Shown one piece after another: positions 1,971-23,338 of a DNA stretch of 64,000 bases. The position numbers and the translations under genes are program-made. Under the pieces are notes generated by a model. That model saw only the letters and a list, made by a program, of their open reading frames with translations. It was not told where the DNA came from and searched no databases. The DNA is from Thermodesulfovibrionales bacterium (GTDB lineage Bacteria > Nitrospirota > Thermodesulfovibrionia > Thermodesulfovibrionales > SM23-35). The stretch covers positions 4,704 through 68,703 of the forward strand of contig JBAZZX010000002.1 of the NCBI GenBank assembly GCA_041658585.1, written 5' to 3'. Positions within the stretch are counted from its first letter, which is position 1. Each line of letters begins with the position of its first letter.

Positions 1971-2444
1971 ATGGAAAATCAAAAGAAAATTCTTGTGATG
2001 GGAATCGGCAACATCCTTTTTAAAGATGAGGGAATCGGCATTCATGTTATCGAAAAGTTGCAGACCGTGGATCTTCCCTCCGATGTTGAATTAGTCGACG
2101 GCGGAACGGCATCTAATATCTTTCTGTACATCATCGAAAATAGAGAAAAAGTTATTCTAATCGATGCCATGAAGGGGGGAGGCAGTCCGGGAACGATATA
2201 TCGCCTTGCTGAAAAGGAATTTCTTGAGACGAGAAAAGGTTGGCGGACAACACAGGAGTCGGAATTCGAAGACGCATACAGAACGGCCATCCTGACGAAG
2301 ACTCAACCTAAAGAGCTTGTCGTAATCGGCATTGAACCGGAAGAAACAGGTGAAGAGGCGCACAAGTGCGAAATCGGACTCTCCCCTTCCCTCGAAACGA
2401 GGATACCCGAAATTATTGAGATGGTGATGAAGGAAATAAAATGA
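1971..2444 (+). CDS. Hydrogenase maturation endopeptidase (HyaD/HybD/HycI family), copy 1
   Basis: ILVMGIGNILFKDEGIGIHV...VELVDGGT. Size is 157 aa. Confidence 0.85.
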   Translation: MENQKKILVMGIGNILFKDEGIGIHVIEKLQTVDLPSDVELVDGGTASNIFLYIIENREKVILIDAMKGGGSPGTIYRLAEKEFLETRKGWRTTQESEFEDAYRTAILTKTQPKELVVIGIEPEETGEEAHKCEIGLSPSLETRIPEIIEMVMKEIK

Positions 2445-3254: not shown

Positions 3255-3298
3255 TTTATACACTTGAACCCTTTAATAGTTTATTATGAGGAGTGGAT

Positions 3299-3775
3299 AT
3301 GACAAATAAGAAACCCGTACTGATCCTCGGCATCGGCAACCTTATCTTGAAGGACGAGGGGTTTGGAGTACATGTAGTCCGGCAGATGGCGGATATCCCC
3401 CTGCCTGATAATGTTGAGCTTATGGATGGGGGCACCATGGGCATCGATCTCCTTTACTATATTGAAGGGAGGAAAAAGGTGGTTGTTATCGACGTAGTCG
3501 ACGCAGGCAGCCCGCCGGGGACACTCTACAGGTTCACCGATAAGAATATCGAATACCACAAGGAAATGTTGCGTTCGGCCCATGAGATCGATTTTGCATA
3601 CATTCTGAAAATGGCTGAACAGCTTGGCACTATTCCGGACGAAGTTGTCTTCATCGGCATAACACCCCGGGAAATCGAACCGGGTGTCGGACTGACTCCT
3701 GTGCTGGAGGAAAAGATCCCTCAGGTTATTGAACTGGTGATGAAGGAGTTAAAACAAGATACTGGAGATAAGTAG
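3299..3775 (+). CDS. Hydrogenase maturation endopeptidase, copy 2
   Basis: VLILGIGNLILKDEGFGVHV...VELMDGGTMG. The ATG at 3299 is preceded by gaggag. The ORF track begins at an alternative GTG at 3293. Confidence 0.85.
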   Translation: MTNKKPVLILGIGNLILKDEGFGVHVVRQMADIPLPDNVELMDGGTMGIDLLYYIEGRKKVVVIDVVDAGSPPGTLYRFTDKNIEYHKEMLRSAHEIDFAYILKMAEQLGTIPDEVVFIGITPREIEPGVGLTPVLEEKIPQVIELVMKELKQDTGDK

Positions 3776-4718: not shown

Positions 4719-5132
4719 ATGCTGATCGACATGAAAAATCAGTTTGAGAAATTGACGGATATTATTGTGAATAATGTTGATTCGTTCCATTTCGGTCACA
4801 GCGAATATCACGGTCCTGTAGACCCCTCGGCAATCGTCACTTTTGGTTCGGACATTATCAAAATTAACGCTCTCGTTTTGGCAGAGTCAGTCCCCACATT
4901 TCAACTTCCGATTAAGTTCGGGATGAATCTCTATGAAACGATCATAGTTCACCTCGACGAGAATTTTGACTTCACTGCTTACGATCCTGATGAAAGATCA
5001 CTGAATGAACTCAACATCTTGATGGGTAATACGGAATATTCATACGACGGCACAATCGCACAGGCAAAAGCCTGTTTCGATCAAATGAACTGGGCTTTCG
5101 ATGTATTGTATCGGAAAATAAATATTGAATAA
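4719..5132 (+). CDS. Hypothetical protein
   Basis: 137-aa ORF with a gggagg RBS 5 nt upstream of the ATG. No motif recognised. Confidence 0.5.
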   Translation: MLIDMKNQFEKLTDIIVNNVDSFHFGHSEYHGPVDPSAIVTFGSDIIKINALVLAESVPTFQLPIKFGMNLYETIIVHLDENFDFTAYDPDERSLNELNILMGNTEYSYDGTIAQAKACFDQMNWAFDVLYRKINIE

Positions 5133-7008
5133 AGAACTATTTGCAAAAATTTCACGCCTTATTCTGTTACTTCTCGTCTTCTTTTTCATTTTTGCCTCTT
5201 TTAATGCAAAAATCTGGGACCCGGATCTCTGGTGGCACCTGAAAACCGGTGAATACATAGCTCAGACGAAATCGATTCCTTCCACCGATCCATTTGCTTT
5301 TACCTCGCTGCCGCAAGATCCGATCCATCCCGAGTCCAAGAGAATAAAATTCATTCTGGGTCAATATTGGATAGCACAGCTTATCTTCTATTGGGTATAT
5401 GAGACGTTCTCTCTCCAGGGGATCATATACATGCGGGCCCTCATCCTCACCCTTCTGATCTTCCTGCTTTACAGAAGCATAAGAAGGGATAGGGTCGGTT
5501 TTTTCTCCGCCCTGCTCTTTCTTCTGCCTGCCGTCACAATTCTTGTCAACTTTACGGGAGAAAGGCCTCAGCTCTTTTCTTTCCTTTTCACGTTCCTGCT
5601 TGTTTTCCTGCTGGAGGGTTATAAAAAGGCGTCACAATCTGAAGCCATGACATCGCACAAAAAAGCCGTGTTGACTTACCTGTTGCCTTTGCCTTTTGTG
5701 ATGATGCTTTGGGCAAATATGCACGGCGGGTTCATCATTGGAATCGCTGTTCTCCTTGGGTACATATGCTGTGAAATTCTCAAGTATCTGACAAAAAAGG
5801 CCGGTCCACATCTTCAACTCCGCTCGTTGAAATATTTAATCGGCGCATGCGTCGCATCAATTATGTTTTCCCTCATCAATCCAAACGGATACAATGTCAT
5901 CCCTTTACTGATCGAGTTAAACAAGAGTCAGTATATGACATCAATCGTGGAGGCAAAGTCACCCCTTGTTTTCATTCAGTACGGGTACTACACGCAGGAG
6001 CTTTATGTATTCTTTTTCCTTCTGGCTGCCGGTTTTCTGCTGTTCCTGATCAATTTGAAGAGAGCAGACCTAACGGATGTCGTCATCTTTTCCGGTCTTG
6101 CGGCTCTTAGTTTGTCCGCGGCGAGGGTCATTCCATTTTTCACACCGGTATCGATCTTTATGCTTGCACGATATTGGAAGAAGAGCGTTCAGATATGGAG
6201 TTCCTCGACACTGATGTCAAGAATTAAAGAGAGGATGGTGAAGCTTCGTTCTCTTGCCGGTCCCGCATTTTCGGAGAGTTTCCTTGCCATAGTCTGCTCT
6301 GTTCTGATTATCGTTATGCTGAATAACGGCAATTATTTTCAGAGCGGCATTCGGAAGGGCCGGTATCCCGAGGGTGCGGTCAAATTCCTTAAGGAGAACA
6401 GGATTTACGGAAATATGTACAACCCTTATGTCTGGGGCGGATATCTGCTCTGGGCCCTCTATCCCGATTACAAAGTCTTCATTGACGGAAGAGGGCTGAT
6501 TGAAGAGGTTTTCTTTCAGTCGGACAGAATCATGGGTGCATCGTCCCTGCAGTTTGCCGGTGTTCCGGAATGGAAAGCTATAATAGATGCATATAACATA
6601 AACTTTATAGTAACATTCAGCGTCTCGGATTTCACCGGAAAACTCATTCCCCTTATCCCGGAGCTCAACTATGACCCTGAGTGGCATCTTGTCTACATGG
6701 ACAATTATTCGTTAATCTTTGTCAAAAATAGCCCGGAGAACCGGGGAATAATTGATAAATTCGACATGCCTAAGAACTGGGTCTGGAACGAAGTCTTGAC
6801 AGAGGCTGCAAAGAAAGCGGCCGATTTTAGGGGGAATGCGAATTATTATATAACAATGGGCGACGCTCTTGTCGCCAGAGAAAACTACCGCGATGCTCTG
6901 ACTGCATATCTCAAAGCCCAACAAAAAGCTCCGGATAACATTATTATCAGAGAAAAATTAAATATGATGCAGAAAACAGGTCGGGCGCCTGGACCCGCAA
7001 GCCCTTGA
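5125..7008 (+). CDS. Polytopic membrane protein with a C-terminal TPR-like tail (possibly GT-C-type glycosyltransferase-like)
   Basis: Many hydrophobic helices, an early-loop WDPDLWWHLKTGEY, and a C-terminal YYITMGDALVARENYRDALTAYLKAQQ. The function is a guess. Confidence 0.55.
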   Translation: MNKELFAKISRLILLLLVFFFIFASFNAKIWDPDLWWHLKTGEYIAQTKSIPSTDPFAFTSLPQDPIHPESKRIKFILGQYWIAQLIFYWVYETFSLQGIIYMRALILTLLIFLLYRSIRRDRVGFFSALLFLLPAVTILVNFTGERPQLFSFLFTFLLVFLLEGYKKASQSEAMTSHKKAVLTYLLPLPFVMMLWANMHGGFIIGIAVLLGYICCEILKYLTKKAGPHLQLRSLKYLIGACVASIMFSLINPNGYNVIPLLIELNKSQYMTSIVEAKSPLVFIQYGYYTQELYVFFFLLAAGFLLFLINLKRADLTDVVIFSGLAALSLSAARVIPFFTPVSIFMLARYWKKSVQIWSSSTLMSRIKERMVKLRSLAGPAFSESFLAIVCSVLIIVMLNNGNYFQSGIRKGRYPEGAVKFLKENRIYGNMYNPYVWGGYLLWALYPDYKVFIDGRGLIEEVFFQSDRIMGASSLQFAGVPEWKAIIDAYNINFIVTFSVSDFTGKLIPLIPELNYDPEWHLVYMDNYSLIFVKNSPENRGIIDKFDMPKNWVWNEVLTEAAKKAADFRGNANYYITMGDALVARENYRDALTAYLKAQQKAPDNIIIREKLNMMQKTGRAPGPASP

Positions 7009-7083
7009 ATCTTCGAACTCCTTCTTCAGATTTAACAAGAGTTTTCTGGTAATACCAGGACTGCAAACAAGTTTATTTTTTCC

Positions 7084-7113
7084 TTGACAGAAAAATGAGA
7101 AAGATGGTATAAA
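7084..7113 (+). promoter_or_regulatory. Sigma-70-type promoter with extended -10
   Basis: TTGACA, an 18-nt spacer ending in TGg, then TATAAA. Confidence 0.55.
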
Positions 7114-7149
7114 ACGCTGATACAAAACTTTAAAATTAGCCGGTTACTG

Positions 7150-7199
7150 CACCCTTCGACAGGCTCAGGGTGACAAAAAAGATTTTTTGCAAGAGCGTC
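7150..7199. repeat. Family-A right half, in the 5' leader of the cytochrome genes
   Basis: cacccttcgacaggctcagggtgacaaaaaagattttttgcaagagcgtc. Confidence 0.7.
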
Positions 7200-7256
7200 A
7201 AAATCGGCTTTAAGAACTATTAAGTTTTATAAATTTTCTAAAAAGGGGGTTTGAAA

Positions 7257-8096
7257 ATGAAGTTAGCCCATGGGAATAGGGAAAAGATTCATGTGTTCCG
7301 GCCGCTGCTGATACTTCTCTTGGCGTGTTTTTTGACTGCGGGACTTTTGGTAAGTAACCAGAACAAAAGCATTGCGGCCTCTCAGCTTTCAAATGATGAC
7401 TGCGTCAAGTGCCACCTTACTGTTCAGGAAATGGTGGACAGCAAGGGAGGCAAGCATAAGACCGCTATTAACTGCATGGGGTGCCATAAGGGACACCCTC
7501 CAATGGTGAGCAAAGAGAAAATAATACCTGTTTGCAGCGATTGTCATGCAGGTAAGAAACACTATGAAATAGGCGGTTGTAATACATGCCATTCAAATCC
7601 CCATGCACCCCTTGATATGAAATTGGCTGCAAATCTCACCGGCCCCTGCCTTTCCTGTCACGAAAAACAGGGGGACGAGCTTAAGACACATCAAACCCGC
7701 CATTCGAAATTGTTCTGCACAACCTGTCACAAGGCTCATAAGGAGATTCCTTCCTGTCTGAAATGCCATCAGGCACATTCAGCAGATATGGTCGAAAAAG
7801 ATTGCCTGATCTGTCATCCAGCGCATCAGCCGCTCACTATTACGTACGGTGCTGATATGCCATCAAAATCCTGCGCAGCCTGCCATAAGACTATTTTCGA
7901 TACCCTGCTGACCGGTACCGAAACGAAGCATTCCAAACTGGCATGCGTTTATTGTCATAAGGATAAACATAGAAATGTTCCAGCCTGTGAAACCTGTCAC
8001 GGAAATCCACATCCTGCTGGAATGACGGCAAAATTCCCCAAATGTAACATGTGCCATACCAGTGCACATAGTTTAGGAAAGGAGGCTCAGAAGTGA
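7257..8096 (+). CDS. Dodecaheme c-type cytochrome
   Basis: 12 CxxCH motifs in ~280 aa, with a hydrophobic N-terminus. The ATG at 7257 follows aaaaggggg. Confidence 0.9.
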   Translation: MKLAHGNREKIHVFRPLLILLLACFLTAGLLVSNQNKSIAASQLSNDDCVKCHLTVQEMVDSKGGKHKTAINCMGCHKGHPPMVSKEKIIPVCSDCHAGKKHYEIGGCNTCHSNPHAPLDMKLAANLTGPCLSCHEKQGDELKTHQTRHSKLFCTTCHKAHKEIPSCLKCHQAHSADMVEKDCLICHPAHQPLTITYGADMPSKSCAACHKTIFDTLLTGTETKHSKLACVYCHKDKHRNVPACETCHGNPHPAGMTAKFPKCNMCHTSAHSLGKEAQK

Positions 8097-9019
8097 TGAA
8101 TCAAAGGAAAAAATCAGTCTTAATTACAATCGGGTTATCGATAGTATTGCTCATCATCGTAGCCTGTGCAACAGAAGAGATAGCCCCGGTAACAGCACAG
8201 CCTGTACCAGAGGCAACTGCACAGCCTGCAGAGACTGCAGTGGAGGCGCCGAAACCCGCACCGAAACCGCTCTCTACCTATGATGTTGAACTGACACCCC
8301 TTACTCCTGCTGATTGTGGCCGCTGCCATGCGAGTGTCTTTAATCAGATCAAAGCTGAAGGCGGCAAGCATAAGATCGACTGTACAAAATGTCATACCAA
8401 GTTTCATGCGTACAATCCGGTGAAACAGAACTGGAACGATATCATGCCTCAATGTAAAACTTGTCATGGCCTTATCCATGGTGAGAAATTCGCAGTATGT
8501 GCGACATGTCACTCAAATCCGCATGCTCCCAAAACACAAATGACCATGAGCGCGGAAATGTCAAAGGTGTGCGGCGATTGTCACGTAAAAGTAGCACCGG
8601 TACTTCAGAACAATCCAAGCAAACATACCAAGGTTGCATGCGCGGCATGCCATCACGACAAGCATGGCTACATCCCATCCTGCATGGAATGTCATAAACC
8701 GCATTCAGCAAATCAGACAGTTAAGGATTGTCTGGCGTGCCACCCGGTACATTCTCCTCTAAAAATCAGCTATGCCATTTCAACTCCTACTGATGTCTGT
8801 GGAGCTTGCCACAGCGCAGTGTATGGTAAACTCAAAGCCAATACCAGTAAACACTCGACATTGACCTGTGCAGCATGTCACACAAAACATAGATTTATCC
8901 CTAAATGTGATGGTTGCCACAGCAAACCTCATGGCGAAGCAATGCTCAAGAAGTTCCCGAACTGTTCAGCTTGTCATGTGAGCGCACACGAAATTCCATC
9001 GAAGTCGGTCGCAAAATAA
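8096..9019 (+). CDS. Dodecaheme c-type cytochrome, lipoprotein-like paralogue
   Basis: 12 CxxCH motifs collinear with the previous gene. The N-terminus ...LLIIVAC is followed by a Pro/Ala-rich linker. The start overlaps the upstream stop (TGATG). Confidence 0.9.
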   Translation: MNQRKKSVLITIGLSIVLLIIVACATEEIAPVTAQPVPEATAQPAETAVEAPKPAPKPLSTYDVELTPLTPADCGRCHASVFNQIKAEGGKHKIDCTKCHTKFHAYNPVKQNWNDIMPQCKTCHGLIHGEKFAVCATCHSNPHAPKTQMTMSAEMSKVCGDCHVKVAPVLQNNPSKHTKVACAACHHDKHGYIPSCMECHKPHSANQTVKDCLACHPVHSPLKISYAISTPTDVCGACHSAVYGKLKANTSKHSTLTCAACHTKHRFIPKCDGCHSKPHGEAMLKKFPNCSACHVSAHEIPSKSVAK

Positions 9020-9036
9020 AAGAGCTTTCCTTTAAA

Positions 9037-9066
9037 CCCCGGGGGAATTCTCCCCCGGGGTTTTTT
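9037..9066 (+). terminator. Rho-independent terminator
   Basis: ccccggggga / attc / tcccccgggg followed by tttttt. Confidence 0.75.
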
Positions 9067-9464: not shown

Positions 9465-9493
9465 TTGACAAAGGGATGTAGAGAAGTTAAAAT
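9465..9493 (+). promoter_or_regulatory. Sigma-70-type promoter
   Basis: TTGACA, a 17-nt spacer, TAAAAT. It lies 60 nt upstream of the 9554 ATG. Confidence 0.6.
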
Positions 9494-9553
9494 TAATTGT
9501 TAACTGTATAAAATATATAAAATTGCACAATACGGAATAGATAAGGAAAAGAA

Positions 9554-10354
9554 ATGCATTTAATGACAAAGACGGCGAGAAATTATATTCTTGCAATTTT
9601 GGTTCCTGCTTTGTATTTTTTGCTGAATCTTCAAGCACTCGCAGCAGAGGGGAATCCGTGCCTTACATGTCATGGTGATCTTAAGGCACAGAAAACCATT
9701 CATCAACCACTTGCTATGGGTTGTGAAGCATGCCACAAGGCGGTAGAAGGCAAAAACCATCCTGAAAAGGGCAGCATGGTTCTCATACAGGGAATGCCGG
9801 CTCTTTGTTACAGTTGTCATGACGAATCAAAATTCAAAGGAAGTTCAATCCATAAGCCCATATCCATTGGTATCTGTAAAGCATGTCATAATCCCCATAG
9901 CTCGAATTTTAAAAACCTCCTTAGAAGTGAATTACCGGAGCTTTGTTATTTTTGTCATGACAAAGGGAAATTCACAAAAAAATACAATCACAAAGTGATC
10001 AATGTGATTGGCTGTGTGACATGCCATAATCCCCATGCGAGCAACAACCCATCGCTTCTGTCCAACCCTGTTAATGAAGTCTGTGTGACCTGTCACAAGG
10101 CCCAGTCATCAGGGTTGCATATTGTCTCACTTCCTGCAAGACAGGTTCATCCGATTAAAGGCGTCAAGGATATCAGCACCCTCAAAATGATCAAAGTTCC
10201 GGACCCTAAAAATCCAAAGGTACAAGTTGAAATACCGGACCCCAACGTTCCCGGCAAGGAATTAAGCTGCGCAAGCTGTCATAACCCGCATAGTTCGGAT
10301 TATCCAAAACTCTTCCTACAGCAAAGGATCTGCCTTAGATGCCACAAATACTGA
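9554..10354 (+). CDS. Nonaheme c-type cytochrome, secreted
   Basis: 9 CxxCH motifs, several as CxxCHNPH. Signal peptide ends ...LQALAAEG. Confidence 0.9.
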   Translation: MHLMTKTARNYILAILVPALYFLLNLQALAAEGNPCLTCHGDLKAQKTIHQPLAMGCEACHKAVEGKNHPEKGSMVLIQGMPALCYSCHDESKFKGSSIHKPISIGICKACHNPHSSNFKNLLRSELPELCYFCHDKGKFTKKYNHKVINVIGCVTCHNPHASNNPSLLSNPVNEVCVTCHKAQSSGLHIVSLPARQVHPIKGVKDISTLKMIKVPDPKNPKVQVEIPDPNVPGKELSCASCHNPHSSDYPKLFLQQRICLRCHKY

Positions 10355-11409
10355 AACCAGGGGGCCGACTATTGCCTAATAAATATCAATCAGCAGTTCT
10401 CAACAGGATATTCGTCTTACTGATACTTGTTATTATGATTGCAGGCTGCGTTACCGCATCAAGTCAGAGTGATCAAGCCATGGGTGAATACGTTTGGCCG
10501 ACTCCGCCTGAGACTCCCAGGATCAAGTTCGTAAGACAGTGGTATCACAAATATGATTTCGGAAAACCAAACAAATTTCTCAATCTATTAATCGGTGAGG
10601 AACGCGGCATACGTCTCCGGAGACCGGCCGGCGTAGTATCGGATTTGGCAGGCAATGTTTACGTGGCGGATTCAGAACACGGGGTTATATTCGTCTTTGA
10701 CCAGGAGAAGAAAGTCCTTCGCTTTCTGGGTGAAGGATTGCTGTCCGCCCCTATCGGTCTTGCAATAAATAACAAGAAAGGGATATTGTTTGTATCCGAC
10801 TCAAGACTTGACAAGGTTTTCGGTATTGACAAAAATAGCGGCAAGGTTTTAATGGATTTGGGTACTCCAGGCCAGTTCAAGAATCCATCCGGGTTGGTCT
10901 ATGATGAAACCAACGATCGGCTCTATGCGTCCGATACCAAAAACCATGTGGTAAGAGTTTTTGATGAAAACGGCAAGTCTTTACTGACAGTCGGAAAGAA
11001 GGGAAATGAAGATGGAGAATTCAGTTATCCAAGCTTCCTGGCTCTGGACAAGTCCGGCAGGCTTTATGTTGTTGACTCTTTGAATTTCAGGGTACAGATA
11101 TTTGACCGCGAAGGCCGGTTTATCAAGAAATTCGGCAAATTGGGTGACTCCTCCGGATCTTTCTCCCGACCCGCAGGAATAGGAGTCGATTCTGAAGGAC
11201 ATGTCTATGTGGTTGATACGTCTTTTAATAACTTCCAGATTTTCAGCGAGGATGGAAAACTCCTGTTGTGGGTCGGACAGGGAGGCGGAAAACCGGGGGA
11301 ATTCTCCCTTCCTACGGGGATGTATATTGACGGAAAAGACATGATTTATGTTTCAGACACATTTACCAGACGAATTCAGGTATTTCAGTATTTGAAGGAA
11401 AATAAATAA
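10339..11409 (+). CDS. NHL-repeat beta-propeller lipoprotein
   Basis: Lipobox MIAGC. Repeated G.F..P.G(I/L)A.D..G..YV.D..N.R(I/V)QIF units. Confidence 0.85.
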   Translation: MPQILKPGGRLLPNKYQSAVLNRIFVLLILVIMIAGCVTASSQSDQAMGEYVWPTPPETPRIKFVRQWYHKYDFGKPNKFLNLLIGEERGIRLRRPAGVVSDLAGNVYVADSEHGVIFVFDQEKKVLRFLGEGLLSAPIGLAINNKKGILFVSDSRLDKVFGIDKNSGKVLMDLGTPGQFKNPSGLVYDETNDRLYASDTKNHVVRVFDENGKSLLTVGKKGNEDGEFSYPSFLALDKSGRLYVVDSLNFRVQIFDREGRFIKKFGKLGDSSGSFSRPAGIGVDSEGHVYVVDTSFNNFQIFSEDGKLLLWVGQGGGKPGEFSLPTGMYIDGKDMIYVSDTFTRRIQVFQYLKENK

Positions 11410-11465
11410 ATGTACGATAAACTGGATGAAAAATATTGCAGCGCCGATCCGTCAAAATTCCATGC

Positions 11466-13463
11466 ATGACATTGAAAGAACGAAAGAATATTTTTACGTT
11501 GATTCCATGCATCATCTTTTCTTGGCTGGGGGAAAAAAATAGGGTTCTCTCTTCCGGGCGCATTGTAATATTTGTATTTGCGCTGTTTTTTTTTTCGGCA
11601 ATCTTCACATTACCCTATAAATCCTTAGCCATGTCAACAAATCAGGGAGGAATGGGAGGAACCGGACCGGAAACAGGAATCTCTTACTCTCAACTTTACG
11701 GAGGCAAAACTAAGGCAAGATATTCCTTCAGATTTGATGGCCTGGTTGAATTGACTTACCGAGACTCTACAATATTGACATCGTACAATGGTATAAGACA
11801 AAAAACCGGCTGGACTTCTTTCGGACAGCGGTACAAACTTGGCGGGCATGGTTTCATTTATCACCACAAGCTGCTTAAATATTACGTAAACGTAGGCTTT
11901 AACTCGGACAAAACAAAAAATGACAATGAGACAGGTTCTGTCAATTCAAAACAAATAACCTATGATCTGGGGTTGATTTTTTTTAACACGAGGCCGGTTA
12001 CTCTGGACCTTTATGCTTCGAGAACACTTTATGCCGGCGGCGGCTCCAACTTGACTGATGATTCTGTCTCCACATCATATGGCATCCGTTTGGTCTCGGT
12101 AAAAAAACCATTGCCTGTAATACGTATGGAATATTCCCATTGGGATTATCATGCCGAACGAATGGGCGGCACGAGGTTTTACGACGAATGGGAGGGGAAG
12201 TCCATAATTGTGAAACAAAAGGTCAAATACGAGACAATCAGCGACAGATTCGATATCTATGCAAACGGCTTTTGGAAGTCCCTAAAAACACGATATTCAT
12301 TCAGTTCCGGCTTTGTAAAATTTTCGACTCTGAACCGGGATTTCGATACGTTTTATATCAGGACCAGTTTCTATACGCAATTTAAAAGTAACCATTCTCT
12401 CTGGAGTTCTTTTCAGTATAGGAAGATTGACACATCAAAGCTTCTAAACATTTCATTTGATTACAAGCCGGTCCCCATCAAAAACATACATCATAGCTAC
12501 AGCTTTGAGTATATGAAATCGGAAACACCGGATACTAAATCAAATGCCTATATATTTGGCAGCCTATGGCGCTACCGGTTTTCTCCCAAGACCAATGCCA
12601 AAGTGGATTTCCATTACAGGCTCGGTTCAAATTCCGGAGACGACGAGACAGCCATAAAATTCGATGCTTCCATTAACCACGGCAGACCGTTAAAAGTATT
12701 CGATTTAATCACCCAGTATAACTTTTTTATCGGACAGGAAACAAACGACAATAATTTCACTTTTCTGGAAAATAGACTTTACCTTTCTCTGGCGACGAGG
12801 AAATACCGATGGGGGAAAATATATACGACTTATGACATCAGATACAATATCTTTAATTTTAAATTCAACTCAACAGACCCCGGCAAGCCCACATCAAAGG
12901 ATACTGACGAAATACAGCATAGATTCAGACTTGGAGCAAAAGTCAAAGGACCTTTAAGGGCTTCATGGTCCGTCGAACTGGAAGCCAGATACCTTGATTC
13001 CTCTGAAAAAAATGCAGGTGCATGGAAGAGTGTGTGGATAGGTGAAAATCAATGGGCGCAGAAGATCAGGCATTATTCCGCGAAGGCGGATCTCCGCTAC
13101 CCTATCGGAAGAAAAGGTACTTTGTCACTCGCCGGAAGCTATACCATGGGTGAGACGAATTCCCAACCGATCAGGAAGTATGATTATGAATCACGGTTGC
13201 ATTACAACATTTTCAGAGACCTCCGCTTTTCCGGCTGGTGGAGAGTTGAATGGCGAAGTGCAGGATGGTGGAGTAACGGCAACTTGCAAAATGTCGACAG
13301 GCAGTTTTACAATGATACGAAAACAACGGATTATCAATTCAACCTTGATTATGCCTGGAGAAAACTCTTTTTTTCGATGGAATACGCATGGACCAAATTT
13401 GAAGAAGGAACAATTGAAACAGATGCAAAACGTATGTATTTAAGGGTAAGCAGACCATTTTGA
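11466..13463 (+). CDS. Large outer-membrane beta-barrel-like protein (putative porin of the cytochrome conduit)
   Basis: ~666 aa from the ATG at 11466 (the ORF track starts at TTG 11436). It has a hydrophobic signal-like segment ...FFFSAIFTLPYKSLA, an aromatic-rich alternating pattern throughout, and a C-terminal ...YLRVSRPF. Confidence 0.65.
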   Translation: MTLKERKNIFTLIPCIIFSWLGEKNRVLSSGRIVIFVFALFFFSAIFTLPYKSLAMSTNQGGMGGTGPETGISYSQLYGGKTKARYSFRFDGLVELTYRDSTILTSYNGIRQKTGWTSFGQRYKLGGHGFIYHHKLLKYYVNVGFNSDKTKNDNETGSVNSKQITYDLGLIFFNTRPVTLDLYASRTLYAGGGSNLTDDSVSTSYGIRLVSVKKPLPVIRMEYSHWDYHAERMGGTRFYDEWEGKSIIVKQKVKYETISDRFDIYANGFWKSLKTRYSFSSGFVKFSTLNRDFDTFYIRTSFYTQFKSNHSLWSSFQYRKIDTSKLLNISFDYKPVPIKNIHHSYSFEYMKSETPDTKSNAYIFGSLWRYRFSPKTNAKVDFHYRLGSNSGDDETAIKFDASINHGRPLKVFDLITQYNFFIGQETNDNNFTFLENRLYLSLATRKYRWGKIYTTYDIRYNIFNFKFNSTDPGKPTSKDTDEIQHRFRLGAKVKGPLRASWSVELEARYLDSSEKNAGAWKSVWIGENQWAQKIRHYSAKADLRYPIGRKGTLSLAGSYTMGETNSQPIRKYDYESRLHYNIFRDLRFSGWWRVEWRSAGWWSNGNLQNVDRQFYNDTKTTDYQFNLDYAWRKLFFSMEYAWTKFEEGTIETDAKRMYLRVSRPF

Positions 13464-13540
13464 CACATACTGATGATCGTGCAAATTTATCAAATACCAG
13501 GGACAATTTCCAAAAATATCATAGCTATTTAGATATTATA

Positions 13541-14599
13541 ATGAAGTCAATAAATTGCTTAAACAAGCTTCTTGCCCTTTGCTTTCTATTCGCAGTTGTG
13601 ACTCTTTCCGGGTGTGCTGCTTCCGGGCTTTTCAATCAGAACGACAGGTTTGCAGAACAGAAGGTTGTGCCGGTCTGGCCGGCCCCTCCCCAGCAGCCAC
13701 GCATAAAATATCTGACGGGCTTTTCCACATCTTCCGAGCTTGGCATTAGAAAATCATGGTTCAAAAAGACAATAGAAACGGTCTTTGGAGAGGAAGAAGT
13801 TCGGGATGTACTGCTTCGGCCCTATGGTATTTTTGCGACAGATGGAAAAATTTATGTTACAGACCCCGGCACAAGGATTCTTCATATCTTTGATCCTGGA
13901 GCGGGGAGGTATTCACGCATCATGGATGCAGATACTGAAGAGTTTCAGTCTCCTATCGGTGTGGCTGCAGACGGGAATGGAGATATCTATATGACCGATT
14001 CCATTCTGAAAAAGGTGTTCGTATTCAACAGAGAAGGGAAGCACATAAGGCAAATTGGTTCCTCAGATGCATTTCTTCGACCCACGGGTATTGCTCTCGA
14101 TCATGAAAGAATTTATATAATTGATACACATGCCCATCATGTGTTAGTATTCAACAAAAAAGGCGAGCACCTCTTCAGTTTTGGCGGCAACGGAGCAAAA
14201 AAAGGCGAATTCAACTATCCAACTAATATTTTCAAAGGCAAAGACGGTCTGCTCTATATCACTGATTCCATGAACTTCCGGGTCCAGATTTTTGACAGAG
14301 ACGGCAAATTTGTATCCGCCTTCGGCAAACCCGGCGACGGTTCGGGCGACCTCTCAAAACCCAAAGGCATAGCAGTCGACTCCGACGGCCATATATATGT
14401 TGCCGATGCTCAATTCGACAACGTACAGATATTCAACAGTGAAGGCAAGCTTTTACTGGGGGTCGGGAAAACAGGAAACAATATTGGGCAGATGATCCTG
14501 CCGGCGGGCGTTTTTATCGACGAGTACGACAGGGTTTATGTAGCCGACTCTTACAACCACAGGATTCAGATATTTCAGTATATAAAAGAGAGGAAGTAA
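13541..14599 (+). CDS. NHL-repeat beta-propeller lipoprotein, paralogue
   Basis: MKSINCLNKLLALCFLFAVVTLSGC lipobox. It has the same VWPAPP..PRIK N-terminal motif and NHL units as 10339..11409. Confidence 0.85.
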   Translation: MKSINCLNKLLALCFLFAVVTLSGCAASGLFNQNDRFAEQKVVPVWPAPPQQPRIKYLTGFSTSSELGIRKSWFKKTIETVFGEEEVRDVLLRPYGIFATDGKIYVTDPGTRILHIFDPGAGRYSRIMDADTEEFQSPIGVAADGNGDIYMTDSILKKVFVFNREGKHIRQIGSSDAFLRPTGIALDHERIYIIDTHAHHVLVFNKKGEHLFSFGGNGAKKGEFNYPTNIFKGKDGLLYITDSMNFRVQIFDRDGKFVSAFGKPGDGSGDLSKPKGIAVDSDGHIYVADAQFDNVQIFNSEGKLLLGVGKTGNNIGQMILPAGVFIDEYDRVYVADSYNHRIQIFQYIKERK

Positions 14600-15514
14600 A
14601 TGTGTTCTGAAAGAAAATATTTTTGCAGGTCATTTATCGGGATGTTCCCAAATAATACCATATATCGTCATTCCTCAACTCAACCGGGAAATCCGGTTTC
14701 CACGATCAGGCCGAAGAATAACAAGATTTATAGTTCAAGTGGTTTGACATACCAACTTGTTGGGTTCGCTATTTTTTTTCTTCTCTCAATTCCCGTAATT
14801 GCCCTCGCAGGCGGTATCAGGGATACAAAGCATAACCTTTCCGGATCACTCAGCAAATGGCAGGGAAAATTTACAGTCAAGGCAGTTGATGAACCGGAAA
14901 TATGCATTTTTTGCCATACTCCTCATAATGCGTCGCCGGCCCAACCCCTTTGGAACCATGACTTAAGCGGGGTCACAAACTATATCAATTACTGGAGCAA
15001 TACCCTTGCATCCTATTCTTCAGAGGCTGAGGCCCCACCCATTGACGGCTACTCCAAACTGTGCCTCAGTTGCCATGACGGAACGGTTGCAGTCGGCTCA
15101 GTGCAAAGCAGATCGCTGGAAATACTCATGGAGGCCGGCGAGTGTGTCGATGGTTCAGGGAAACTCATCGTCGGCGGAGAGTGCAGCGGATACATCGGGA
15201 CCGATCTTTCGGGAGGACATCCGATATCCATTGTTTACAACCAGTTTCTGGTCGACAAGAGAAATGAAAAAACCAACTTATGCCAGCTTAATCCCCCTCC
15301 GAGCAGTGATCCCGATGTGAAACTTTATCCGACACAGGGAGGTCAGCGGGGTGTGCAGTGCACGAGCTGTCATGACCCGCACACAAATAAGTCGGCAGAA
15401 CTCAAAGACGGCCAGTTATGGCCGCCTTTGTGGCAAAAGCCTTCCTACAATGATGTCTGCTATGTCTGCCACAAAGTTGACTGCGGTGAACCAACAGAGA
15501 TATGGCCATGGTAA
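14600..15514 (+). CDS. Tetraheme c-type cytochrome with an N-terminal membrane anchor
   Basis: CIFCH, CLSCH, CTSCH, CYVCH. One TM helix, LVGFAIFFLLSIPVIALAGG. Confidence 0.85.
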   Translation: MCSERKYFCRSFIGMFPNNTIYRHSSTQPGNPVSTIRPKNNKIYSSSGLTYQLVGFAIFFLLSIPVIALAGGIRDTKHNLSGSLSKWQGKFTVKAVDEPEICIFCHTPHNASPAQPLWNHDLSGVTNYINYWSNTLASYSSEAEAPPIDGYSKLCLSCHDGTVAVGSVQSRSLEILMEAGECVDGSGKLIVGGECSGYIGTDLSGGHPISIVYNQFLVDKRNEKTNLCQLNPPPSSDPDVKLYPTQGGQRGVQCTSCHDPHTNKSAELKDGQLWPPLWQKPSYNDVCYVCHKVDCGEPTEIWPW

Positions 15515-16629
15515 AGTTTTTCCGGTTGTCCTTGTTTATTATCTCTTTAAGCATTCCGTTGACTTTTTTTTCTTCAGCCCATTCAAAGTCTCTTATCGAG
15601 AAAACGCATTTTGATAAAACAAAAGTCCCTATGGGATGCGGAAGTTGCCATATAGGTCATGGTAGAATCCGCACCCCCATGCTGCCCGAAAGGAGAGACC
15701 AGTTCTGTTTCATATGCCATGGAGATAGCTATGCCCTCGACAAAGCGCAAAAAGAGGGTCGCATTGCAAAGAGTGTCAGAGAAAATAATATCAAGAAAGA
15801 GTTTGAGAAACCCAACCACCATCCCATAGAACAAAATACCGGTTTGCACACATACGATGAAATTCTCCCTGAAATCGATTCTTCCATGCCGAGGCACGTG
15901 TCATGCGGTGACTGCCACCATCATCATTTTGTGTCAAAAGAAAATAAAATGCTGGGGATAAGGGGCACAACATCACAAAGAGTGAAAGTCGCCGTATCGG
16001 CTGAATATGAACTCTGCTTTAACTGCCATTCTTACAGCGCCAATCTTCCGTTATATCAAACAAACAAGGCAGAATTGTTTAACATATTGAATCCATCCTT
16101 TCATCCCGTTGTCGGTACGGGGAAAAACATTTCAATGACAAGTCTTATTGCGCCGTTGACAGTATCAAGTCAGATCAAATGCACAGACTGCCATGGCAGC
16201 GACGATCCGACCGGACCGAGAGGTCCTCATGGTTCACAATACAAGTATATACTGTCGAAGAACTTTTCCGATTCTGATGGGCCTGAGAATATTACACAAT
16301 ACGAACTCTGCTACAGTTGTCACAGAAGAAATAGTATATTGAACAACGAAAGCTTCTCTTATCACAATCTGCATATTTCAGATGTGGGGACTTCTTGCAG
16401 GACATGCCACAATCCCCATGGCAGCACAAAGAACCAGCATCTGATTGACTTTGAATCCACCTTTGTTATCAGGCCGTCAACAAGCGGGAGGATGGCTTAT
16501 ACATCAATGGGACCGAATACCGGACAATGCTATCTAACCTGTCACGATAAAGACCATAATCCGGAAGTCTACCCGAAAGGTTCATCAAAACCGGCAGCAC
16601 AGACGTCTTCTTCCAAAAAGAAAAAATAG
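15502..16629 (+). CDS. Multiheme c-type cytochrome (7 CxxCH plus 1 CxxxCH), secreted
   Basis: Motifs counted in the translation. Signal peptide ...FFSSAHSKS. Lys-rich C-terminus. Confidence 0.85.
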   Translation: MAMVKFFRLSLFIISLSIPLTFFSSAHSKSLIEKTHFDKTKVPMGCGSCHIGHGRIRTPMLPERRDQFCFICHGDSYALDKAQKEGRIAKSVRENNIKKEFEKPNHHPIEQNTGLHTYDEILPEIDSSMPRHVSCGDCHHHHFVSKENKMLGIRGTTSQRVKVAVSAEYELCFNCHSYSANLPLYQTNKAELFNILNPSFHPVVGTGKNISMTSLIAPLTVSSQIKCTDCHGSDDPTGPRGPHGSQYKYILSKNFSDSDGPENITQYELCYSCHRRNSILNNESFSYHNLHISDVGTSCRTCHNPHGSTKNQHLIDFESTFVIRPSTSGRMAYTSMGPNTGQCYLTCHDKDHNPEVYPKGSSKPAAQTSSSKKKK

Positions 16630-16735: not shown

Positions 16736-17455
16736 TTAGATTCGCTGTATCAGAGTCTTCATTTCCCCGACAGCCCGTTCCATCCCAACTAGCACAGCCC
16801 TTGATATGATGCTGTGTCCGATGTAAAGACCCCTCAACCCCTGTATTGAGGCTATTTTTTGAACATTAAAATAATTTAATCCGTGGCCGGCATTGACCAG
16901 AAGACCCGAATCCAGGGCGTGCTTAATTGCGCTTACAATACGGATGAATTCCTTTTCCGCTTTTTTCCCTCTTGCATTGGCATACATGCCCGTATGGATC
17001 TCGACCATATCAGCGCCTATCTCTCTTGTTATTTCAATATCCTTTGCCTCAGGATTAATAAACAGACTGACAGGGATTCCGGAGTCATGGATTTTCTTTA
17101 TTGCTTCGCTGACAGCTTTTTTATGGGACTTCACATCCAGTCCGCCTTCTGTTGTCAATTCCTGTCTTTTTTCAGGGACCAGAGTAACCATATCGGGCTT
17201 TATTTTGGATGCAATGTCTATCATTTCTTTGGTTGCTGCCATTTCGAGGTTGAGTTCCACCGGAACAAATTCCCTCAATATCTTCAAATCCCGGTCCTGA
17301 ATATGACGTCTGTCTTCTCTAAGGTGGACTGTGATGCCATCTGCGCCACCAAGGATAGCAAAGGTTGCAGCCATAACAGGATCAGGCTCAACACCCAGCC
17401 GCGACTGTCTCAGGGTTGCGACATGATCTATGTTAACACCCAATAACATAAACAC
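16736..17455 (-). CDS. pdxJ: Pyridoxine 5'-phosphate synthase
   Basis: [15 protein letters not shown]..., 239 aa. Confidence 0.9.
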
Positions 17456-17464
17456 CTCTACGAG

Positions 17465-18463
17465 TTAACAGATTCTCGGCAATTGGTCTCCGGAGAGCAT
17501 ATCTATCATCCTTGTGCCGCCGATTACTGTCTTTAATAGAATCATGCCTTTGGGTTTTTTCTCAACCTCTCCGATGATGCAGGCTTCCCGTGCCAATGGA
17601 TTCTTCCTCATGGTTTTGACAAGCGGCTCTGCTACGTCACTGCTTACTATTGCAATCAGTATTCCTTCATTGGCAACGTAAAGAGGGTCAAGGCCAAGTA
17701 GTTCACAGGCGCCTTTAACACCGGATGGCACCGGTATGGCATTTTCATGAATAGTAATACAATACCCTGAATCTACTGCGATCTCCTTAAGGGTTGTTGC
17801 AAGACCTCCTCTGGTAGGGTCCCTCATGGCGTGTATTTTCTTTGTTTTTCTCAGCATCTCACGGACAAGACCGTTCAGAGGCGCTGTATCGCTTAAAACT
17901 GGAGGATTAAAGGTAAGTCCGTTTCTTTCCGCGATAATCGAGATACCGTGGTTTCCGATAGGACCGCTCAGGATAACCTTGTCAGTCGGCTTAACTCTTA
18001 AAGGAGATACGTCAACACCTTCATCAATCACTCCGATACCTGAAGTATTAATAAAGATACCGTCGCCTTTTCCTTTGTTGACTACTTTTGTATCGCCGGC
18101 TACTATTTTTACTCCTGCCTTTTGCGCCGCCTCGGACATGGATGAAAGTATCTTTTTTAGATCTTTAAGGGGGAACCCTTCCTCAAGAATAAGGCCTGAT
18201 GAAATATATAGTGGTTTTGCTCCTACCATGGAAAGATCATTTACCGTTCCGTAGACGGCAAGCTCTCCGATGTTGCCCCCGGGGAAAAATACGGGTGATA
18301 CGACATAGGAATCGGTTGTAAAAGCCATTTTCCCTTTGTTAATTGCTTTTAGTATTGCAGAATCATTGAGTGCTTTGAGTTCAAATTCAGGGACAAAATG
18401 CTCCCTGATTAGTTGATACATTAATTTTCCCCCGCTGCCATGACCAAGCAGAATACGCTCCAT
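17465..18463 (-). CDS. hypE: Hydrogenase maturation protein HypE
   Basis: PurM-like fold sequence with the diagnostic C-terminal ...DQLPRIC. Confidence 0.92.
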   Translation of the reverse strand: MERILLGHGSGGKLMYQLIREHFVPEFELKALNDSAILKAINKGKMAFTTDSYVVSPVFFPGGNIGELAVYGTVNDLSMVGAKPLYISSGLILEEGFPLKDLKKILSSMSEAAQKAGVKIVAGDTKVVNKGKGDGIFINTSGIGVIDEGVDVSPLRVKPTDKVILSGPIGNHGISIIAERNGLTFNPPVLSDTAPLNGLVREMLRKTKKIHAMRDPTRGGLATTLKEIAVDSGYCITIHENAIPVPSGVKGACELLGLDPLYVANEGILIAIVSSDVAEPLVKTMRKNPLAREACIIGEVEKKPKGMILLKTVIGGTRMIDMLSGDQLPRIC

Positions 18464-18516
18464 GAGTTAATCCCTCCGTTTAAAATTCTCTATATTTACA
18501 AAATCCATTAATGATT

Positions 18517-18646
18517 GAGGCTCTTGCAAATGTCTTGAAAAGATCAAAATGTCATGGTGAGCCTGTCGAACCATGGCAATAATTCAACTTCTTACAGCAC
18601 CCTTCGACAAGCTCAGGGTGACAAAAAGGACTTTTGCAATAAGCTC
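18517..18646. mobile_element. Family-A MITE-like element, complete 130-bp form
   Basis: Near-identical to 54836..54965. Terminal repeats are gaggctcttgcaaatgt ... acttttgcaataagctc. Confidence 0.8.
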
Positions 18647-18740
18647 GATTATATAATCAAATAATGTTAAATGCTATTTTAACATATTTATGGTCTCAGA
18701 ATTGAACAGACATTGACTATACCACTCCCTGCTAATTTGC

Positions 18741-18809
18741 CTTCCTTCGACAAGCTCAGGATGACACGATTGGAATGACATGTGTCATGGTGAGCCTGTC
18801 GAACCATGG
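18741..18809. repeat. Family-A hairpin arms
   Basis: ccttcgacaagctcaggatgac ... gtcatggtgagcctgtcgaaccatgg. Confidence 0.65.
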
Positions 18810-18912
18810 CTCCGCTTTACAAAAGTGCGGTTATGATTGGTATTATATATTTTTCGTTTGCCTACTCCCCCGAATCCTTGAACCCTTTTTTATGTTCCTT
18901 GAACCCTGTCTT

Positions 18913-19542
18913 TTACGGCGGTATCCAGATATCTGAAAGAAACAACGGCAGCTCGGCTGCGCATACCGGCCCTACCCTTGCGTTCCATCCAGTCAGGGTT
19001 TCTATCTCATTCTTCAAGGATGATGCAAGGCCGGGTATTATAAAATCTTTTGCGGTAACCTTGTTATCCATGCCTGTCTTTGTCAGAGAATTATATATTC
19101 TATCGGCCGTCAGGGTTTTATAAACCATAGACATATCCACTGTGTTCCCATCCGTATCAACAAACAAGACATAGAAGGGGCAAACTGTTGTGCTAAGGAC
19201 AGTCAGAAGGACCTGTTCCGTGTATTCATTGTTCCCGGATATAATCGTCAGAGACCTTTCATCAGGCTGATTGAGCTCTACAAGTCCGGTAAATGCCGGG
19301 CGTGGATGCGTAAGCAATGGCACCTCGGGCCATGACTCTTCAATCTTTCTGACCGCTTCAAAAGCATAAGCTTTATTCCTGCCGATAAAAGGACATTCCT
19401 GCGGGAGTTTTTCCCCTCTTTTTATTGCATCGATAAATGAATCACAGGAGGAGAACCCGCATTGAACGCAGTCATTTTGATTCAGATATCTTTGAAAATC
19501 TATTTTGTCTATATATAAATCTGCTTTTGGCAATAAGGCCAC
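18913..19542 (-). CDS. Small Fe-S protein with a CFeSP-gamma/HgcA-like C-terminal domain
   Basis: The N-terminal CVQCGFSSCDSF...ECPFI resembles the CxxCGxxxC...CP 4Fe-4S domain of RnfB/AcsC. The C-terminal half is collinear, from memory, with the HgcA/CFeSP corrinoid domain (LFVDTDGNTV..., ...RVGPVCAAELPLFL). Confidence 0.5.
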   Translation of the reverse strand: MALLPKADLYIDKIDFQRYLNQNDCVQCGFSSCDSFIDAIKRGEKLPQECPFIGRNKAYAFEAVRKIEESWPEVPLLTHPRPAFTGLVELNQPDERSLTIISGNNEYTEQVLLTVLSTTVCPFYVLFVDTDGNTVDMSMVYKTLTADRIYNSLTKTGMDNKVTAKDFIIPGLASSLKNEIETLTGWNARVGPVCAAELPLFLSDIWIPP

Positions 19543-19670
19543 CTGCTTAATACTTTTTCTTCATTATATGCAGGTATTATGATTAGGGTATATGATTGCA
19601 TAGGGTCAAATTATAGGTTTTGCCATTCATTTTGCATTGTTAATTGTCCATTGATAATTAATCTTTTCTA

Positions 19671-20738
19671 CTATTTCACCACTCCTGAATACTTGTAATA
19701 CGCCGCGCAGCTGCCTTCGGTGCTTACCATACAGGCGCCGACAGGGTGTTCGGGAGTGCATGTCTTTCCAAATAGTTTGCAGTCTGTGGGTATCTTTATG
19801 CCTCTGAGCACCTGGCCGCACTGACAGCCTTTCGGTTCCTGTGAGTCAGGGACTTGAATATTCAGTATGCGGTTAATGTCCAAACGAGCTTTACTCGCTT
19901 TTAAAGCCAGACCGCTTCCCGGTATCACGCCGATACCCCTCCAGTTTGCGTCACAGGGTTCAAAGTATTCATTGATCAGGGTCACGGCCTTCCTGTTGCC
20001 TTCGGGTTTCACAACCCTCGTGTACTGGATCTCAACTGCCGCCCTGCCCTCAACCGTCTGGGTCATAAGCATCATAATAGAGGTCAGGATATCTTCCGCA
20101 TCAAACCCGGTTACAACCGACGGTATTTTGTAATCGGACGCAAGAAATTCATAGGGAGCGGTCCCTATAATGGCGCTTACATGTCCGGGAAGAATAAAGC
20201 CGTCGATCTTTAAATCCGGAGAACTAAGCAATGCCTTGAGTGCAGGCGGCACAACTTTATGCGCGGAGTATATATAGAAATTCTTCGCTCCTGCCCTTTC
20301 TGCCTCAAAAAGGGTCCCGGCAATGGACGGCGATGTCGTTTCAAATCCGGTTGCAAAGAAAACTACTTTCTTGTCTTTATGCTTCAATGCAAGATCAAGG
20401 GCATCCATAGGTGAATAGACAATATGGATATTGGCGCCTTCGGCCTGTGCGTGAAAGAGTGATTGCCTTTTGCTGCCAGGCACCCTCATCATGTCGCCAA
20501 ATGTGGTAAGCACAAAACCGTCTGTTTTAGAAATTGCCATAGCAATATCTACATCTTTGATGGGAGTTACACAGACAGGGCATCCGGGCCCGCTGAGAAG
20601 GCTTATCTCTTTTGGTATGACTCCTCTGATACCGTGTCTGAATATGGCAACGGTATGCGTCCCGCAAACCTCCATCAACTTAACGGGTCTGCCGATAGCT
20701 TTTGTAAGGCTGTGTATCCTCTCGATTATCTTTTGCAT
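19671..20738 (-). CDS. hypD: Hydrogenase maturation protein HypD
   Basis: CGTHT and GPGCPVCVTP motifs. Confidence 0.92.
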   Translation of the reverse strand: MQKIIERIHSLTKAIGRPVKLMEVCGTHTVAIFRHGIRGVIPKEISLLSGPGCPVCVTPIKDVDIAMAISKTDGFVLTTFGDMMRVPGSKRQSLFHAQAEGANIHIVYSPMDALDLALKHKDKKVVFFATGFETTSPSIAGTLFEAERAGAKNFYIYSAHKVVPPALKALLSSPDLKIDGFILPGHVSAIIGTAPYEFLASDYKIPSVVTGFDAEDILTSIMMLMTQTVEGRAAVEIQYTRVVKPEGNRKAVTLINEYFEPCDANWRGIGVIPGSGLALKASKARLDINRILNIQVPDSQEPKGCQCGQVLRGIKIPTDCKLFGKTCTPEHPVGACMVSTEGSCAAYYKYSGVVK

Positions 20739-20772
20739 TGTCGACTCCTTCTATAGAAATATTCTAATTCCC

Positions 20773-23187: not shown

Positions 23188-23258
23188 TTTTCTTCAGGGT
23201 CGATGTTATATTCCGCTAACCAGGATAATACAATAGCGAACAATACAACAATCCCTTC

Positions 23259-23300
23259 AAAAAAAAACGGGTTCAGATGTTGTTTTTAAACCTGAACCCG
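23259..23300 (-). terminator. Terminator after hypB (minus strand)
   Basis: cgggttcag ... ctgaacccg hairpin followed on the minus strand by a T9 run. Confidence 0.6.
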
Positions 23301-23338
23301 AATCACAATGTATCTGAAACCTTAGCCTTTTGAGTTTT

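Follow-up and report, generated by a model that had tools for sequence, protein, structure and literature searches.

Six consecutive genes between positions 9,465 and 16,629 of a 64,000-nucleotide stretch of contig JBAZZX010000002.1 from a Thermodesulfovibrionales bacterium (the window) encode three multiheme cytochromes, two NHL beta-propeller lipoproteins and a large predicted outer-membrane barrel (open reading frames ORF1 to ORF6, Table 1). With a probability of about 0.6, this cluster represents a Nitrospirota member of the OmcE/Uet-type outer-membrane electron-transfer module in which the gene order has been permuted. The published minimal omcE cluster consists of two multiheme cytochromes, two beta-propeller lipoproteins, an OmcE-family tetraheme cytochrome and a large barrel (bioRxiv 10.1101/2025.10.22.684050), and the same six-part list was found in the window. 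A first-pass annotation of this DNA had proposed a distinct conduit architecture; since the same set of components is already known from omcE clusters, the module type has been described recently and the window holds a rearranged version of it. Nitrospirota are also among the phyla for which putative OmcE homologues have been listed (bioRxiv 10.1101/2025.10.22.684050).

The cluster was compared with the omcE locus of Geobacter sulfurreducens (GSU0618 region) and three related loci, of which the full form reads resB-ccsB-cytochrome (9-10 heme)-cytochrome (8 heme)-NHL-OmcE-NHL-barrel (~750 amino acids). The NHL proteins of the window matched those of the omcE clusters (L087, L090 and L091) with E-values of about 1e-47 to 1e-63, ORF2 at about 1e-60 and ORF4 across that whole range. 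ORF1 matched the first (9-10-heme) cytochrome of the Desulfuromonadia clusters (E=1e-36 to 1e-41), and ORF5 matched OmcE of the reference loci (E about 1e-24 to 1e-27). The N-terminal WPxPPxxPRI signature of the NHL proteins was common to the window and Geobacter, and the barrels matched in a profile-profile comparison over 77 N-terminal columns (hhalign probability 91%, E=1e-6). The matches for the NHL proteins, ORF1 and ORF5 indicate that the window shares most families with the reference loci in a different order, namely cytochrome-NHL-barrel-NHL-OmcE-cytochrome, whereas the Desulfuromonadia order is cytochrome-cytochrome-NHL-OmcE-NHL-barrel. The window further differs in its shorter barrel (665 versus about 750 amino acids), in having no glycosyltransferase block after the cluster, and in its neighbourhood, which is pdxJ/hyp instead of resB/ccsB. 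Within the reference set, the G. sulfurreducens-type locus (L087, 8338-10001) has a single NHL gene, with 578 bp of non-coding DNA before omcE, a second assembly (L088, 8340-9423) has its NHL gene split into two ORFs, and L090 and L091 each have two intact NHL genes.

Table 1 Features of the six-gene cluster and its upstream flank, in window coordinates
Feature	Position	Strand	Basis or remark
Upstream operon, possibly associated	5125..9019	+	Membrane/TPR (tetratricopeptide repeat) protein and two 12-heme cytochromes
Hairpin terminator	9034..9063	+	13-bp stem with 9 GC pairs, then a T-run
Sigma-70-like promoter, TTGACA-17-TAAAAT	9465..9493	+	11/12 match, best of the region
ORF1, secreted 9-heme cytochrome, MtrA/DmsE-related	9554..10354	+	9 CxxCH, signal peptide
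ORF2, six-bladed NHL beta-propeller lipoprotein 1	10339..11409	+	Pfam NHL E=1e-33
ORF3, predicted 28-strand outer-membrane beta-barrel without plug domain	11466..13463	+	AlphaFold2, Foldseek
ORF4, NHL beta-propeller lipoprotein 2, paralogue of ORF2	13460..14599	+	Pfam NHL E=1e-30
ORF5, secreted OmcE-family tetraheme cytochrome	14600..15514	+	4 CxxCH; start 14600, 14642 or 14744
ORF6, secreted 8-heme cytochrome, partner of ORF5	15502..16629	+	7 CxxCH + 1 CxxxCH

ORF5 was matched to 7tfs_A, the OmcE filament of G. sulfurreducens, with an E-value of 2.6e-22, and to the tetraheme chain 9yuq_N with an E-value of 6.2e-13, the latter entry being taken to be the OmcE filament of Desulfuromonas soudanensis (bioRxiv 10.1101/2025.10.22.684050). 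Its identity to these chains was 30-32%. The four CxxCH motifs and the histidines H30, H61, H159 and H213 were invariant in an alignment of 46 sequences that included Geobacter OmcE. A hydrophobic stretch of ORF5 aligned with the signal peptides of OmcE (7tfs) and of the 9yuq chain, so the protein is secreted and not the membrane-anchored 4-heme cytochrome it had been called at first. As annotated, ORF5 carries about 50 N-terminal residues more than its homologues (245-280 amino acids), and its start is therefore uncertain among the three candidates of Table 1.

The downstream cytochrome ORF6 had all eight of its heme motifs conserved in 50 homologues, together with ten or more other histidines. 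Its CxxxCH motif was kept in at least 96% of them and is therefore regarded as a real site. ORF6 aligned colinearly with the last two-thirds of 12-heme proteins of 535-670 amino acids, which begin with an OmcE-like third. Queries with ORF5 and ORF6 both matched 62 proteins, with E-values down to 1e-79 for the mature part of ORF6, and a colinear ORF5-like/ORF6-like fusion was seen in all of the 40 listed among these 62, mostly as 12-heme proteins of 535-690 amino acids. Fusions of this kind occur in many phyla. As judged from these alignments, ORF5 and ORF6 appear to correspond to a widespread 12-heme protein split in two, which is a new detail, and homopolymeric nanowire formation is for this reason uncertain.

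Several results weigh against assigning the cluster to the OmcE/Uet-type module. Neither hmmsearch nor jackhmmer linked ORF3 to the Geobacter-type barrel, the similarity being limited to the 77 N-terminal columns given above, and hhalign of ORF3 against single Geobacter-type barrel sequences was weak (probability about 20%). For ORF6 no relation to the second (8-heme) Desulfuromonadia cytochrome was detectable, and the first gave only a weak match (1e-12). Because sequence distances placed Geobacter OmcE only ambiguously with respect to the two context classes, hidden Markov models (HMMs) of the classes were used. ORF5 scored 198 bits with the N-terminal domain of the fused 12-heme proteins versus 134 bits with the stand-alone OmcE-like proteins, while the proven nanowire OmcEs scored about equally with both models; ORF5 thus lies nearer to the fusion class than to the proven nanowire subunits, a further difference from the omcE clusters. 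Given these class scores, ORF5 is best described from its sequence as an OmcE-family protein without established orthology to the nanowire subunit. An AlphaFold2 model of ORF5 built on the 46-sequence alignment reached a predicted local distance difference test (pLDDT) value of 57, and Foldseek returned nothing meaningful from the PDB for it; poor quality is usual when a protein so rich in coil is modelled without its hemes, and the model was therefore not used as evidence.

The same class scores bear on a reading of the cluster as a classical OmcE nanowire system. In such a system ORF5 alone would polymerise into a micrometre-long homopolymeric filament, the barrel would act mainly as an usher-like secretion or anchoring pore, the NHL lipoproteins would be periplasmic chaperones, and ORF1 and ORF6 would serve as periplasmic feeders. 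The resemblance of ORF5 to two filament formers proven by cryogenic electron microscopy, with all heme ligands kept, argues for this arrangement, as does the literature, in which porin-based mounting of OmcE and OmcS filaments and an analogy with chaperone-usher systems have been proposed (bioRxiv 10.1101/2025.10.22.684050); ORF5 is moreover the sole candidate subunit, as the window has one OmcE-like gene only. However, ORF5 classes with the N-terminal domain of the 12-heme fusions and not with the stand-alone proteins, and its tight coupling to ORF6, up to fusion, argues for a heteromeric unit. Neither the class HMMs nor the PLWNH position yielded a sequence feature that separates polymerising from non-polymerising members of the family, and we consider the homopolymeric system unlikely here. 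A ninth histidine in the PLWNH motif was considered as a 'stopper' ligand and rejected, since H, R or K may occupy this position irrespective of class.

The barrel protein ORF3 comprises 665-675 amino acids, with a signal peptide, a mature part from near position 11631 and a C-terminal end ..YLRVSRPF, of which ..RPF is conserved among relatives. An AlphaFold2 model from an eight-sequence alignment (mean pLDDT 80) showed 28 beta-strands and no plug. Foldseek with this model retrieved only large outer-membrane barrels from the PDB, and the top template-modelling score (TM-score), 0.43, was for MtrB of MtrCAB. The initial assignment of ORF3 as a large outer-membrane barrel is upheld by these results, which also supply the predicted strand count, and the barrel belongs to neither the LptD nor the alginate-export family. 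No family or structure match was found in Pfam or NCBIfam (E<=0.01) or by sequence search of the PDB. A word-indexed search recovered only seven relatives of ORF3; a HMMER profile search reached 451 cluster representatives at E<1e-3, of which 58 had E<1e-30.

An MtrA-like cytochrome gene near a large plug-less barrel, with MtrB as the top structural match, recalls the MtrCAB/Pcc conduits (PDB 6R2Q). ORF1 matched MtrA (6r2q_A) with an E-value of 6.4e-16 in the PDB sequence search. Together with the 28-strand model, this MtrA/DmsE-like cytochrome supports the earlier view of an outer-membrane, cytochrome-rich operon around a genuine barrel. The likeness to MtrCAB/Pcc has its bounds: the modelled barrel has 28 strands instead of 26, its resemblance to MtrB is of a general kind only (TMq 0.43), and ORF3 matched no MtrB/PioB or Pcc porin family in Pfam or NCBIfam (E<=0.01). 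ORF1 has nine hemes and scored 101.5 bits on TIGR03508, under the DmsE-family cut-off of 192.2, which places it outside the decaheme family. Among the six genes, no lipoprotein cytochrome of the MtrC/OmcA/OmcB type was present, and the NHL lipoproteins and the OmcE-like protein stand in its place; Pfam matches of the cytochromes of the cluster to MtrC/MtrF domains were partial and below or barely above cut-off. The true start of ORF1 is probably Met4, at position 9563, because the related locus L005 has ATA where the window has its first ATG.

Both NHL proteins carry a lipobox, ..MIAG-C at Cys37 followed by the VWPTPPETPRIKF signature in ORF2, and ..TLSG-C followed by VWPAPPQQPRIKY in ORF4, the start of which is probably the ATG at 13541. 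The Pfam matches, the lipoboxes and the motif bear out the earlier description of two paralogous NHL lipoproteins whose mature parts begin VWP(T/A)PP..PRIK. In the PDB, ORF2 was related to the NHL propellers of TRIM71 and Thin. A signature consisting of the lipobox, a linker and [VILF]WPxPPxxPR[IV] was common to NHL proteins from Nitrospirota to Geobacter.

The distribution of these proteins was assessed by an alignment scan for OmcE-like domains in species-representative genomes, in which at least 591 of 600 candidate stretches were confirmed; the 80 loci kept span many phyla. Across the scanned loci, an NHL gene directly adjoined 115 of 137 OmcE-like domains, and NHL genes tracked OmcE-like genes more tightly than barrels. 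A role as partner of the cytochrome therefore fits the NHL proteins better than that of a barrel plug. A jackhmmer profile seeded with ORF3 gave 68 barrel matches in the 80 kept loci and the earlier ones. Of 60 barrel loci from many phyla, 34 had the barrel bracketed by NHL genes, which confirms that the NHL-barrel-NHL order of the window is conserved, and a further 23 had an NHL gene on one side only. The commonest arrangement in the scan was OmcE-like (4 heme)-NHL-small cytochrome-barrel-NHL-12-heme cytochrome, and Uet-like arrangements also occurred. The complete order of the window, cytochrome-NHL-barrel-NHL-OmcE-like-8-heme, was kept in four related metagenomic loci that carry Nitrospirota labels in their records, with barrel identities of 25-68%. 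In one of these relatives (L001, 4588-6450), the second NHL gene is separated from the OmcE-like gene by an inserted gene for a 620-amino-acid beta-helix/CARDB protein. A Deferrimicrobium contig (L019, 596-2785) carries a 729-amino-acid ORF between an OmcE-like gene and an NHL-OmcE-like-8-heme triad; this ORF matched no family, was not similar to the barrel profile, and may be a very divergent barrel. L019, with this ORF, and L084, with only a short sequence upstream, were withdrawn as examples of barrel-less loci.

The Uet (undecaheme electron transfer) cluster, known from 'Ca. Tenderia electrophaga' and Gallionella, combines a tetraheme cytochrome, a predicted 28-strand barrel, two NHL proteins and an undecaheme cytochrome (bioRxiv 10.1101/2022.05.06.490989; PMC10734462). 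By this description it resembles the window cluster in its tetraheme, 28-strand barrel, two NHL proteins and large multiheme cytochrome. A Uet-like locus from the scan (L063) encodes an OmcE-like tetraheme and a barrel matched by the ORF3-seeded jackhmmer profile (E=1e-6). It also has two NHL genes, c7 trihemes and an 11-heme protein whose N-terminal domain is OmcE-like. Positions 9465-16629 of the window, in contrast to Uet, have no set of three c7 trihemes, no cupredoxin, no peptidyl-prolyl isomerase and no undecaheme cytochrome.

NHL proteins accompany cytochromes in other settings as well. In Desulfovibrio ferrophilus IS5, multiheme cytochromes of DFE_0448-0451 and DFE_0461-0465 are co-expressed with NHL beta-propeller proteins; these propellers have been proposed to stabilise an outer-membrane cytochrome complex, and the clusters have been linked to extracellular electron uptake (PMC5815863, PMC9769857). 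The pairing of NHL proteins with multiheme cytochromes is, by description, shared with the window, whereas no barrel gene has been reported in the D. ferrophilus cytochrome clusters. In Gram-positive Dethiobacter, NHL proteins are likewise found beside multiheme cytochromes. The osc (omcS-companion) cluster of G. sulfurreducens (Shen et al. 2025, as cited in PMC13194489) is described as encoding the hexaheme nanowire cytochrome OmcS, the beta-propeller OscD and the channel-like OscEFG, and by this description resembles the window in having a nanowire cytochrome gene accompanied by beta-propeller and channel-like proteins. It differs in that OmcS is a hexaheme and not OmcE-like, and the window cluster has no 6-heme protein; sequence searches of the PDB with the three cytochromes of the cluster gave no match to an OmcS structure.

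These comparisons concern the model of the first-pass annotation, in which the cluster is a new conduit whose NHL propellers replace surface lipoprotein cytochromes as barrel plugs, scaffolds or substrate-binding modules, coupled to H2 oxidation. We regard it as improbable. The NHL genes that flank so many barrels, the lipoprotein nature of both ORF2 and ORF4, the lack of a lipoprotein cytochrome among the six gene products, and the hydrogenase and hyp genes on both sides, with pdxJ-hypE kept in close relatives, are all consistent with it. Nevertheless, the cluster has outward components at hand in the secreted ORF5 and ORF6: ORF5 is homologous to OmcE and, with ORF6, corresponds to a 12-heme protein, so there is no need for propellers to replace surface cytochromes. 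Moreover, NHL genes follow OmcE-like genes more closely than barrels, and NHL-cytochrome pairs exist in D. ferrophilus, which has no apparent porin-cytochrome genes, and in Gram-positive Dethiobacter. NHL proteins are named as parts of the Uet cluster and of the D. ferrophilus cytochrome clusters; the architecture has already been described as Uet and omcE clusters, and other lineages lack the hydrogenase neighbourhood.

The assignment to the OmcE/Uet-type module treats the six genes as one unit. The ORF listing of the window showed ORFs 1-6 to be co-oriented and tightly packed between 9554 and 16629, with overlaps of 16 nucleotides between ORF1 and ORF2 (10339/10354), 4 nucleotides between ORF3 and ORF4 (13460/13463, with a TTG start of ORF4) and 13 nucleotides between ORF5 and ORF6 (15502/15514), and with ORF4 and ORF5 abutting (14599/14600). 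The cluster is genuine and had been correctly delimited: the six same-strand ORFs, their junctions and, by motif counting, the heme numbers of ORF1, ORF5 and ORF6 were all reproduced. Paired-CXXCH domains were found by Pfam in all three cytochromes, and motif inspection revealed no lipobox in any of them. All six products are predicted to be exported, four with ordinary signal peptides and two as lipoproteins. The strong terminator listed in Table 1 closes the upstream 12-heme cytochrome operon and marks the 5' boundary of the transcription unit of the cluster. As for the promoter noted earlier at 9465-9493, it is the best sigma-70 match of the region and L005 has both of its hexamers unchanged in the orthologous intergenic stretch, but promoter-like sites in the region were no more frequent than in shuffled sequences (19 found versus 17.4 expected).

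This tight packing also bears on the possibility that the cytochromes form a periplasmic electron-storage or hydrogenase-linked network with no role across the outer membrane, the barrel being an unrelated, co-located porin. Many multiheme cytochromes with such Pfam domains reside in the periplasm, and an adjacent upstream operon with two 12-heme cytochromes lies near hydrogenase genes. Against this, the barrel is embedded in the operon by overlapping or abutting junctions and co-occurs with the same partners across many phyla, and its modelled size, 28 strands without a plug, would be too large for a general porin. A purely periplasmic network is accordingly very improbable.

The hydrogenase neighbourhood of the cluster was found to be real, as had been stated. 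The C-terminal part of a [NiFe]-hydrogenase large subunit (..DPCIACAVH) is encoded at 1-384 (+), and hydrogenase maturation proteases of the HycI type are encoded by two separate genes at 1971-2444 (+) and 3293-3775 (+). A 298-amino-acid pentapeptide-repeat protein (754-1650, -) lies between the end of the hydrogenase gene and the HycI genes. On the other side, positions 16736-23986 (-) encode pdxJ, hypE, a CdhD-like/Fe-S domain protein (18913-19542), hypD, hypF and hypB. In three of the four related loci (L001, L003 and L005), pdxJ-hypE adjoins the cluster on the other strand, and this neighbourhood is retained even at barrel identities of 25-35%; the contig of the fourth locus (L004) ends just beyond the cluster. 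Conservation of the hyp neighbourhood was confined to Nitrospirota-type loci, the Desulfuromonadia cluster adjoining resB/ccsB. Coupling of the cluster to H2 metabolism, as proposed at first, is possible.

In the upstream operon, the gene of a 627-amino-acid polytopic helical membrane protein with a C-terminal TPR part (5125-7008) is followed by those of two 12-heme cytochromes, at 7251-8096 and 8093-9019; the latter cytochrome is a lipoprotein and has a Pro/Ala-rich linker. L005 has this trio upstream as well, and in L008 and L009 there are 12-heme cytochromes beside the cluster. A full-length homologue of the membrane/TPR protein (28% identity, E=3e-64) was found in L084, a Fischerbacteria contig, where it adjoins NHL-NHL-OmcE-like-8-heme genes. 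The upstream operon may thus be part of this system, perhaps serving to modify or assemble cytochromes. No relation was detectable between the 5125-7008 protein and the 500-amino-acid membrane/TPR protein of the Geobacter cluster. The 5125-7008 ORF was also considered as a second porin, which was rejected in view of the polytopic helical nature and the TPR tail of its product.

For the cluster as an OmcE/Uet-type module, the following path of electrons may be envisaged. By analogy with MtrAB, ORF1, as a proposed periplasmic cytochrome, would sit inside the 28-strand barrel ORF3 and conduct electrons through the outer membrane. On its outer face, they would pass to or from the 12-heme unit of ORF5 and ORF6, which are likely the outward-facing cytochromes and whose partnership is inferred from their occurrence as one polypeptide in many genomes. 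This unit might extend as a filament via an OmcE-type inter-subunit His-heme link. Each NHL lipoprotein could be an outer-membrane-tethered docking or assembly partner of the OmcE-like cytochrome, acting through its WPxPPxxPRI segment. We further propose, tentatively and with less confidence than the assignment itself, that a 12-heme protein (OmcE-like + 8-heme), and not a plain OmcE homopolymer, is the conserved outward-facing element of NHL-barrel modules, with ORF5 and ORF6 as its split form. Desulfuromonadia omcE operons encode no base or tip candidate (bioRxiv 10.1101/2025.10.22.684050). If the proposal is true, the 12-heme protein could be the missing base or tip adaptor, linking OmcE-type filaments to the cytochrome in the barrel, or alternatively could form a separate surface wire, and each NHL lipoprotein would be the dedicated partner of one OmcE-like module.

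The window thus offers a well-delimited OmcE-type cluster next to hydrogenase genes, and supports the view that such modules are common far beyond Geobacter. It bears on the unsolved questions of how cells secrete and anchor cytochrome nanowires and of what starts and ends them. The pairing of NHL and OmcE-like genes, the NHL signature, the fusion or splitting of OmcE-like and 8-heme cytochromes, and a 28-strand barrel family of about 450 representatives constitute hypotheses that are testable in tractable relatives.

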